Below are positions 17,764 to 18,533 of a stretch of DNA of 18,533 nt, one piece after another. Position numbers and translations under genes: made by a program. The stretch comes from a virus. The stretch is taken from the UHGV virus genome UHGV-2195102. One strand, written 5' to 3'. Under the pieces are notes generated by a model, which was not told the origin of the DNA, searched no databases, and saw only the letters and a program-made list of their open reading frames with translations. Numbering within the stretch: the stretch's first letter is position 1; every line of letters starts with the position of its first letter.

Positions 17764-18533
17764 ACTGGCATTCTTTTGAAGGCTATGCAGAGAATCAATA
17801 CTTTGTCGATCCATGCAAACTGTTGCTGACAACCCCAGGTATTGATGCACGTAACGGCGAATATGAAGCGTTCGGTGTACCCGCGACGATTCTTGCTAAC
17901 TTCCTGCGCGAAAATGGCGTAGTGCCGGAAAAATGCGATCTTAACTCCATCCTCTTCCTGCTGACTCCGGCAGAAGATATGGCCAAACTTCAGCAACTTG
18001 TTGCCCTGCTGGTACGCTTCGAAAAACTGCTTGAGTCCGACGCGCCATTAGCAGAAGTGCTACCTTCCATCTACAAACAGCATGAAGAGCGCTACGCCGG
18101 TTATACCCTGCGTCAGTTGTGTCAGGAAATGCATGATTTGTATGCCCGCCACAACGTGAAACAACTGCAAAAAGAGATGTTCCGTAAGGAGCACTTCCCA
18201 CGCGTCAGCATGAATCCGCAAGAAGCCAACTACGCCTATTTACGCGGTGAAGTGGAACTGGTTCGTCTGCCGAATGCAGAAGGCCGTATCGCTGCCGAAG
18301 GTGCGCTTCCTTATCCTCCGGGTGTGCTGTGTGTTGTTCCGGGTGAAATCTGGGGTGGTGCTGTTCTGCGTTACTTCAGCGCTCTGGAAGAAGGGATCAA
18401 CCTGCTGCCAGGTTTTGCACCGGAGCTGCAGGGTGTCTATATCGAAGAACATGATGGTCGTAAGCAAGTTTGGTGCTATGTCATCAAGCCTCGTGATGCG
18501 CAAAGCACCCTGTTGAAAGGGGAAAAATTATGA
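17764..18533 (+). CDS. speF: ornithine decarboxylase, C-terminal fragment (about 256 aa), 5' part separated by the prophage insertion
   Basis: Translation ...WHSFEGYAENQYFVDPCKLLLTTPGIDARNGEYEAFGVPATILANFLRENGVVPEKCDLNSILFLLTPAE...GALPYPPGVLCVVPGEIWGG...ELQGVYIEEHDGRKQVWCYVIKP matches the C-terminal domain of enterobacterial ornithine decarboxylases. The C-terminus differs from SpeC as I recall it, hence speF (paralog assignment uncertain). The track ORF starts at an internal TTG 17823; the in-frame run back to 17706 upstream of about 17764 is non-homologous. Confidence 0.7.

Follow-up and report, generated by a model that had tools for sequence, protein, structure and literature searches.

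A Mu-type prophage in Escherichia coli speF probably entered a gene already inactivated by an older 230-nt deletion

The window analysed here, the whole 18,533-nt stretch of the virus genome UHGV-2195102, ends in a piece of an ornithine decarboxylase gene that directly adjoins a prophage end. The locus raises the question of whether the phage destroyed a working decarboxylase gene, as a preliminary description of the sequence had proposed, or settled in one that had already lost its function.

A megablast search of 5426 complete E. coli genomes with window positions 17400-18533 as the query matched the 3′ end of speF in 5066 of them. The aligned part was exactly 17764-18533, which represents the last 770 nt of speF and is 100% identical in many strains; the matched regions lie under features annotated as speF or ornithine decarboxylase and as potE. 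Relative to the intact speF of strain BHUCD01 (2199 nt; contig L001, 1572-3770), the match begins at nt 1430, inside codon 477. The fragment comprises nt 1430-2199, with two bases of codon 477 followed by the 255 codons of residues 478-732. Its identity is also seen from the gene order kdpDE-speFL-speF-potE, kdpDE and the 5′ part of speF being located on the far side of the prophage, where the upstream speFL region aligns in contig L009. The assignment to speF made in the preliminary description is borne out by both the 100% identity and the synteny. The features at this side of the window are as follows.

17764..18533, + strand: 3′ fragment of speF (100% identity, position in the annotated gene, Pfam domains and position of K355).
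17823..18533, + strand: truncated decarboxylase ORF of 236 aa with a TTG start (ORF list; exact protein in public assemblies).
18530..18533, + strand: ATGA overlap of the potE start and the speF stop (L001, and contig L006, which is 100% identical to the window).

According to Pfam, intact SpeF consists of N-terminal, major and C-terminal domains. The window fragment does not have the full set: it retains profile positions 345-417 of the 417 of the major domain (the last 73) together with the whole C-terminal domain. The lysine of the S-x-H-K motif (SVHK, K355), which we take to be the PLP-binding lysine of the decarboxylase family, lies upstream of residue 477 and hence outside the fragment. 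The reading frame is open back to 17706, behind a stop at 17703-17705, and its first start codon is the TTG at 17823 (codon of Leu497) that opens the 236-aa ORF; the first in-frame ATG of the fragment is at 17979. These details are as first described, and gene callers do report the TTG ORF, as a truncated ornithine decarboxylase. The sequence upstream of this TTG shows no convincing ribosome-binding site. The exact 236-aa product is encoded on 63 contigs (101 blocks) of public assemblies. The last codon of the window is the speF stop, which overlaps the start of potE, located 4 nt before the speF end in both L001 and L006. Inspection of the downstream sequence, which the preliminary description had recommended, revealed that potE immediately follows the fragment; window-identical contigs such as L006 carry a complete potE of 439 aa. 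In BHUCD01, speF is intact but potE carries an internal stop (L001 3767-5086).

The phage end was fixed at position 17763 by aligning the window with three other insertions of the same prophage: all four share the sequence up to ...CTCAAGTCTAATCA and diverge from the next base. The prophage end at 17763 reads ...TAATCA and adjoins speF at 17764, and the C-terminal decarboxylase piece does start in frame directly after the prophage, with the boundary exactly between these two positions, as had been claimed. The same neighbourhood was found in all 24 near-junction contigs read; L006, from ENA sample ERZ1304268, is 100% identical to window positions 7823-18533. None of the 5426 complete RefSeq E. 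coli genomes covered the phage-speF junction in the megablast search, and exact scans for it gave nothing in viral contigs or in contigs of species-representative genomes.

17603..17763, no strand assigned: non-coding terminal region of the prophage, ending ...GTCATTTATCTCAAGTCTAATCA (shared by four insertion sites, then divergence).

Read from the outside, this terminal region is TGATTAGACTTGAGATAAATG and mirrors the other prophage end, TGATGCGCCGCGCGATAAATG. The arrangement of TGAT, 9 nt and GATAAATG is present at both termini (window 17743-17763 and L009 10312-10332), and the terminal GATAAATG repeats are likely to be the repeats bound by the transposase. At the far end, a second GATAAATG is positioned 23 nt further in.

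The remainder of the window is occupied by the prophage, whose genes are arranged in the following order.

1..17763, no strand assigned: about half of a ~36-kb BcepMu-like (Bcepmuvirus) transposable prophage (identity to PhiKM; collinear with annotated E. coli prophages).
1-7759, − strand: late genes (head, lysis).
7841-8827, − strand: ORF of unknown function.
8824..9285, − strand: candidate HTH (Xre-type) repressor, divergent from the early operon (Pfam HTH_31 / HTH_3).
9336-17602, + strand: early operon, reading towards the speF fragment.
10814..12583, + strand: DDE (rve) transposase of 589 aa (Pfam rve; annotated transposase in PhiKM).
12594..13760, + strand: AAA+ ATPase of 388 aa, MuB-like transposition partner (Pfam AAA_22, E = 3.6e-20; 'ExeA family' in RefSeq).
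14060..14590, + strand: Gam host-nuclease inhibitor (Phage_Mu_Gam on the identical L006 gene; RefSeq annotation).
16792..17241, + strand: GemA / gp16 family protein (PF06252 GemA on the identical L006 gene; RefSeq annotation).
17213..17602, + strand: Mor-family transcription activator, the last gene before the phage end (Pfam Mor, E = 1.3e-43).

The rve match of the transposase scored 35.8 bits against a Pfam gathering cut-off of 32.6. The window opens inside a head-morphogenesis (Mu F-like) gene (1-549), and some 18 kb of prophage with head, tail, tail-fibre and invertase genes lie beyond its left edge. Three accessory ORFs, at 6655-7131 (+), 7169-7759 (−) and 7841-8827 (−), are located between the lysis module and the repressor. 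They gave no significant match in Pfam or PADLOC, the best being AAA_30 (P-loop-like) with E = 0.003. PhiKM has different genes at this position, including a DNA adenine methylase, and the region 6655-8827 looks like a variable cargo region. Near the far end of the prophage, the C-terminal part of the tail-fibre gene and the assembly genes are oppositely oriented in two contigs (L010 11410-13973 and L011 11385-13792); the flipped region adjoins a resolvase/invertase-type recombinase of 190 aa, and several short-read contigs end there. As judged from this arrangement, the flipped tail-fibre genes point to a putative invertible host-range switch resembling the G segment of Mu.

The element carries the marks of a transposable phage: TG...CA termini with inverted repeats, TGATTAGAC...(GATAAATG) and TGATGCGCC...(GATAAATG), an rve transposase with its AAA+ partner, duplication of the target, and residence at many unrelated sites. 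Its last 2.26 kb were found in 641 of the 5426 complete E. coli genomes beside many different host genes, among them lom, prpR, gcd, irp2, a HutD/Ves gene, a TOBE-domain gene and an SDR oxidoreductase gene. Over the same 2.26 kb, the prophages of E. coli IAI39 and CE10 are 100% identical to that of the window. The closest deposited phage is Escherichia phage PhiKM, with 96% nucleotide identity over the part that it shares with the window; its record bears the classification Bcepmuvirus. The likeness to Bcepmuvirus extends to the gene content (rve transposase, AAA+ partner, Gam, GemA and Mor), the TG...CA termini and the layout, with the early operon directed towards the nearby genome end and the late genes divergent. 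No substantial difference from Bcepmuvirus prophages was seen; only the speF site differs from the sites occupied in complete genomes. With phage Mu, the prophage shares near-random transposition, a short target duplication and the splitting of a host gene into flanking halves. The target duplication of Mu is 5 bp, whereas three insertions of the window prophage have 6 bp; in addition, the early region of the window prophage is inverted relative to the end, and the transposase matches the rve core only. Termini of the TG...CA type typify those BcepMu relatives that possess an rve core (PMC2628397). Copies of the prophage are themselves interrupted by IS elements in LC-1302-2020 (L005 20596-23012), CE10 and N32; the head region is hit by an IS66-family element and the early region by one of the IS3 family.

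The window shows only one junction. The far one was predicted from the other phage end in strain LC-1302-2020 as speF ...CCAGGGGAACACTGG(C) followed by TGATGCGCCGCGCGATAAATG, and one pattern scan of metagenome contigs retrieved it in its 6-bp form. In contig OGQK01001651.1, the far junction reads ...GGGGAACACTGGC immediately followed by TGATGCGCC..., the phage part being 100% identical to the LC-1302-2020 prophage end. The 5′ part of speF ends there in ACTGGC, the same six bases that open the fragment in the window.

17764..17769, no strand assigned: ACTGGC, window-side copy of the 6-bp target-site duplication (its counterpart terminates the 5′ part of speF beyond the prophage).

Because ACTGGC occurs at both junctions, it constitutes a 6-bp target-site duplication, and hence the prophage transposed into speF; no base of the gene was lost and six were duplicated, which is the signature of transposition. 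The far junction is present in L009 and L010-L015 (7 of 7 independent contigs, from NCBI, ENA, Logan and JGI), and ENA sample ERZ1304268 supplies both junction contigs, L006 for the near and L013 for the far side. Six-base-pair duplications likewise flank two other insertions of the prophage: CGTCGG in prpR and CGTGAC in gcd. In LC-1302-2020, the prophage splits prpR into two annotated halves, with ends of the form TGAT...ATCA and CGTCGG on both sides; in EBJ003, it splits gcd between the CGTGAC flanks. Thus the preliminary description was right that the prophage physically splits speF, both junctions having been found, and that the rest of the gene lies beyond the prophage.

Two other origins of the junction have to be weighed against these data. 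The speF fragment might be a remnant left by a deletion or rearrangement beside the prophage, the 5′ part being lost or located elsewhere for unrelated reasons; in favour of this, the window displays a single junction only. The 5′ part, however, ends at the same ACTGGC and is joined to the other terminus of the same phage, no speF base is missing, and the empty site reconstructs perfectly, which makes a remnant highly improbable. That the junction is an assembly chimera of a prophage contig and the speF locus has practically no weight left. Transposable phages do package and amplify with variable host flanks, which may confuse assemblers, but the near junction recurs identically in no fewer than 24 contigs read (101 blocks) and the matching far junction in 24 (65 blocks), their sources being isolates at NCBI, metagenomes at ENA and JGI, and Logan assemblies.

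Two products deduced for an undeleted far side were tried and rejected, SpeF 1-478 for a 5-bp duplication and SpeF 1-478 followed by LMRRAINALYLVR for a 6-bp duplication. An exact look-up of these undeleted 478-aa and 491-aa versions, with a query taken from one SpeF allele only, found neither in the collection, and a homology search revealed no cluster of undeleted chimeric SpeF. The predicted proteins were not found because a deletion further upstream breaks the ORF. In the far-junction contig, the 5′ part of speF has a frameshifting deletion of 230 nt, comprising speF nt ~484-713, which is flanked by 7-nt repeats GTGCAAC (nt 477-483 and 707-713). A 14-nt overlap at the deletion had been suggested by the BLAST pieces and was discarded; the exact repeat is 7 nt. 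All seven far-side loci read (7/7) carry both the deletion junction, ...CCGACTTGTGCAACACCGGTTTATCT..., and the phage junction. One of them, the far-side contig L013, comes from the same sample, ERZ1304268, as the window-identical L006. The coordinates of the deletion beyond the window are L009 9561-9615, L008 2801-4769 and L018 1601-3569.

An ORF of 259 aa begins at the junction of the deletion and extends over the first 13 codons of phage sequence (...GEHWLMRRAINALYLVR). Spanning both lesions, it exists only where deletion and insertion occur together, and it was found exactly on 37 contigs (65 blocks) in NCBI, ENA and Logan.

The deletion is widespread in E. coli. The deleted segment is present in 3210 of the 5426 complete genomes and missing from ~1850 of the 5066 that have the speF 3′ end, and the deletion junction is contiguous in 1646 of the 5426 (~30%). 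The deletion first came to light in strain 35, which of the complete genomes has the downstream flank closest to the window lineage (100.0% over 10.8 kb); in this strain, an IS1 also separates kdpE from the leader peptide gene (L008 1483-2174). A hybrid speF built from strain 35 was set aside on account of its extra differences W455* and N647D and its mismatch to the 3′ part in the window. We reconstructed the allele as it was before the insertion, linking the far-side 5′ part to the window 3′ part through a single ACTGGC. In VR50, LC-1302-2020 and many other genomes, the resulting allele of 1969 nt aligned in a single ungapped stretch at 99.9%. VR50 is an example of the deletion allele with an uninterrupted insertion site: its locus ECVR50_RS03390 is annotated as 'ornithine decarboxylase, frameshifted' and lies between speFL on its upstream side and an intact potE on its downstream side. 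The rebuilt allele and the frameshifted VR50 allele have the same length, and the window lineage differs from VR50 in having, in addition, the prophage at nt 1435. The comparison with prophage-free relatives that the preliminary description had suggested thus goes against its functional reading: what the reconstructed allele matches there at 99.9% is annotated as a frameshifted pseudogene. Since every far-junction contig read contains the 230-nt frameshifting deletion, the data do not support the insertion as the inactivating lesion of the decarboxylase. The split of the gene that had been described is real; the functional claim attached to it is probably wrong.

Collectively, these data favour a Mu-type prophage that inserted into a speF already inactivated by the older 230-nt deletion, to which we assign a probability of about 0.86. 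Empty-site copies of the deletion allele are common, and no other allele was seen to bear the insertion, which argues for the deletion first and the insertion later; this order would be the simplest history. SpeF activity would then have been lost before the phage arrived. The structure with both lesions was pieced together from contigs, no complete RefSeq E. coli genome searched having it on one chromosome. The window's own genome should carry the deletion as well: as its speF 5′ part is outside the window, we infer the deletion there from contigs of the same sample and from the identical insertion event rather than from one continuous sequence.

The opposite order would have the prophage hitting a functional speF and being itself the inactivating event, with the 230-nt deletion arising or recombining in later. 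Insertion alone would be enough to inactivate the gene by separating K355 from the C-terminal domain, and a deletion flanked by 7-nt direct repeats might in principle happen more than once, or enter by recombination once the prophage was in place. We nevertheless consider this order unlikely in view of the deletion in seven out of seven far-junction contigs, the ORF across both lesions on as many as 37 contigs, the failure to find the undeleted chimeric protein in the collection, and the 1646 complete genomes in which the deletion accompanies an empty site, the closest matches (99.9%, 1969 nt) among them.

According to the favoured history, with the deletion preceding the insertion, a deletion between the GTGCAAC repeats would already have rendered speF non-functional in the lineage when the BcepMu-like prophage (~36 kb) transposed into its frame between nt 1429 and 1436, duplicating ACTGGC. 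The window covers the early-gene (Mor) end of the phage and its junction with the last 770 nt of speF; the 5′ part of the gene is some 36 kb away beside the Gin-recombinase end. The locus now consists of three presumably non-functional pieces: an N-terminal ORF of 169 aa, the middle ORF of 259 aa, which includes the PLP lysine and its 13 phage codons, and the C-terminal piece of 236/255 aa. None of the three ORFs (169, 259 and 236 aa) has a full catalytic domain.

The remaining question is what the insertion may have added for potE. The speFL leader has a role in the speFL-speF-potE operon, which is served by a single promoter. The gene now lies ~36 kb from the speFL-speF promoter and, although still intact, would be cut off from this promoter and the leader. 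The polar effect on potE proposed in the preliminary description is the only added effect of the insertion that we judge plausible from the gene arrangement; it would be partly pre-empted, since translation of speF already stops early in the deletion allele. The early operon of the phage has the same direction as the speF fragment and potE, and one hairpin lies between them.

17611..17656, + strand: hairpin AAUCAGGCUGG...CCGGUCUGAUU followed by UUUU (the only stem kept in the centroid fold).

Located just past the mor-like gene, this hairpin could, on the folding model, possibly act as a weak terminator of the phage operon pointing towards the speF fragment and potE. A simple terminator scan called none between mor and the phage end, this hairpin included; the fold of the phage end was no better than that of shuffles (z = 0.01), and a promoter scan was at chance level, with 2 promoter-like sites against 1.1 expected. 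Control of potE by the phage, with the gene either silent in the lysogen and transcribed on induction or driven from a weak promoter-like site at 17654-17681, would appear very unlikely. If true, it would amount to an accidental lysogenic conversion of polyamine transport in a lineage already without SpeF.

The ornithine decarboxylase reaction has long been known to be variable in E. coli, and the deletion allele may underlie this variable test. Neither the transposition mechanism nor the frequent decay of speF to a pseudogene is new. A pangenome study names speF as one of the metabolic genes that most frequently become pseudogenes in E. coli (PMC13322260), which agrees with an old deletion followed by a later insertion. 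In the literature searched, we located no description of the 230-nt speF deletion as such or of this speF insertion. The insertion is an ordinary insertion into a pseudogene and a further site of a known element, and its significance beyond correct annotation is slight. The exact pair of junctions offers a handy clonal marker of the lineage in isolate and metagenome data. The three speF pieces are best annotated as one prophage-interrupted pseudogene instead of as 'truncated ornithine decarboxylase' proteins, and it is the older 230-nt deletion, rather than the phage, that should be held responsible for the lineage's loss of inducible ornithine decarboxylase.
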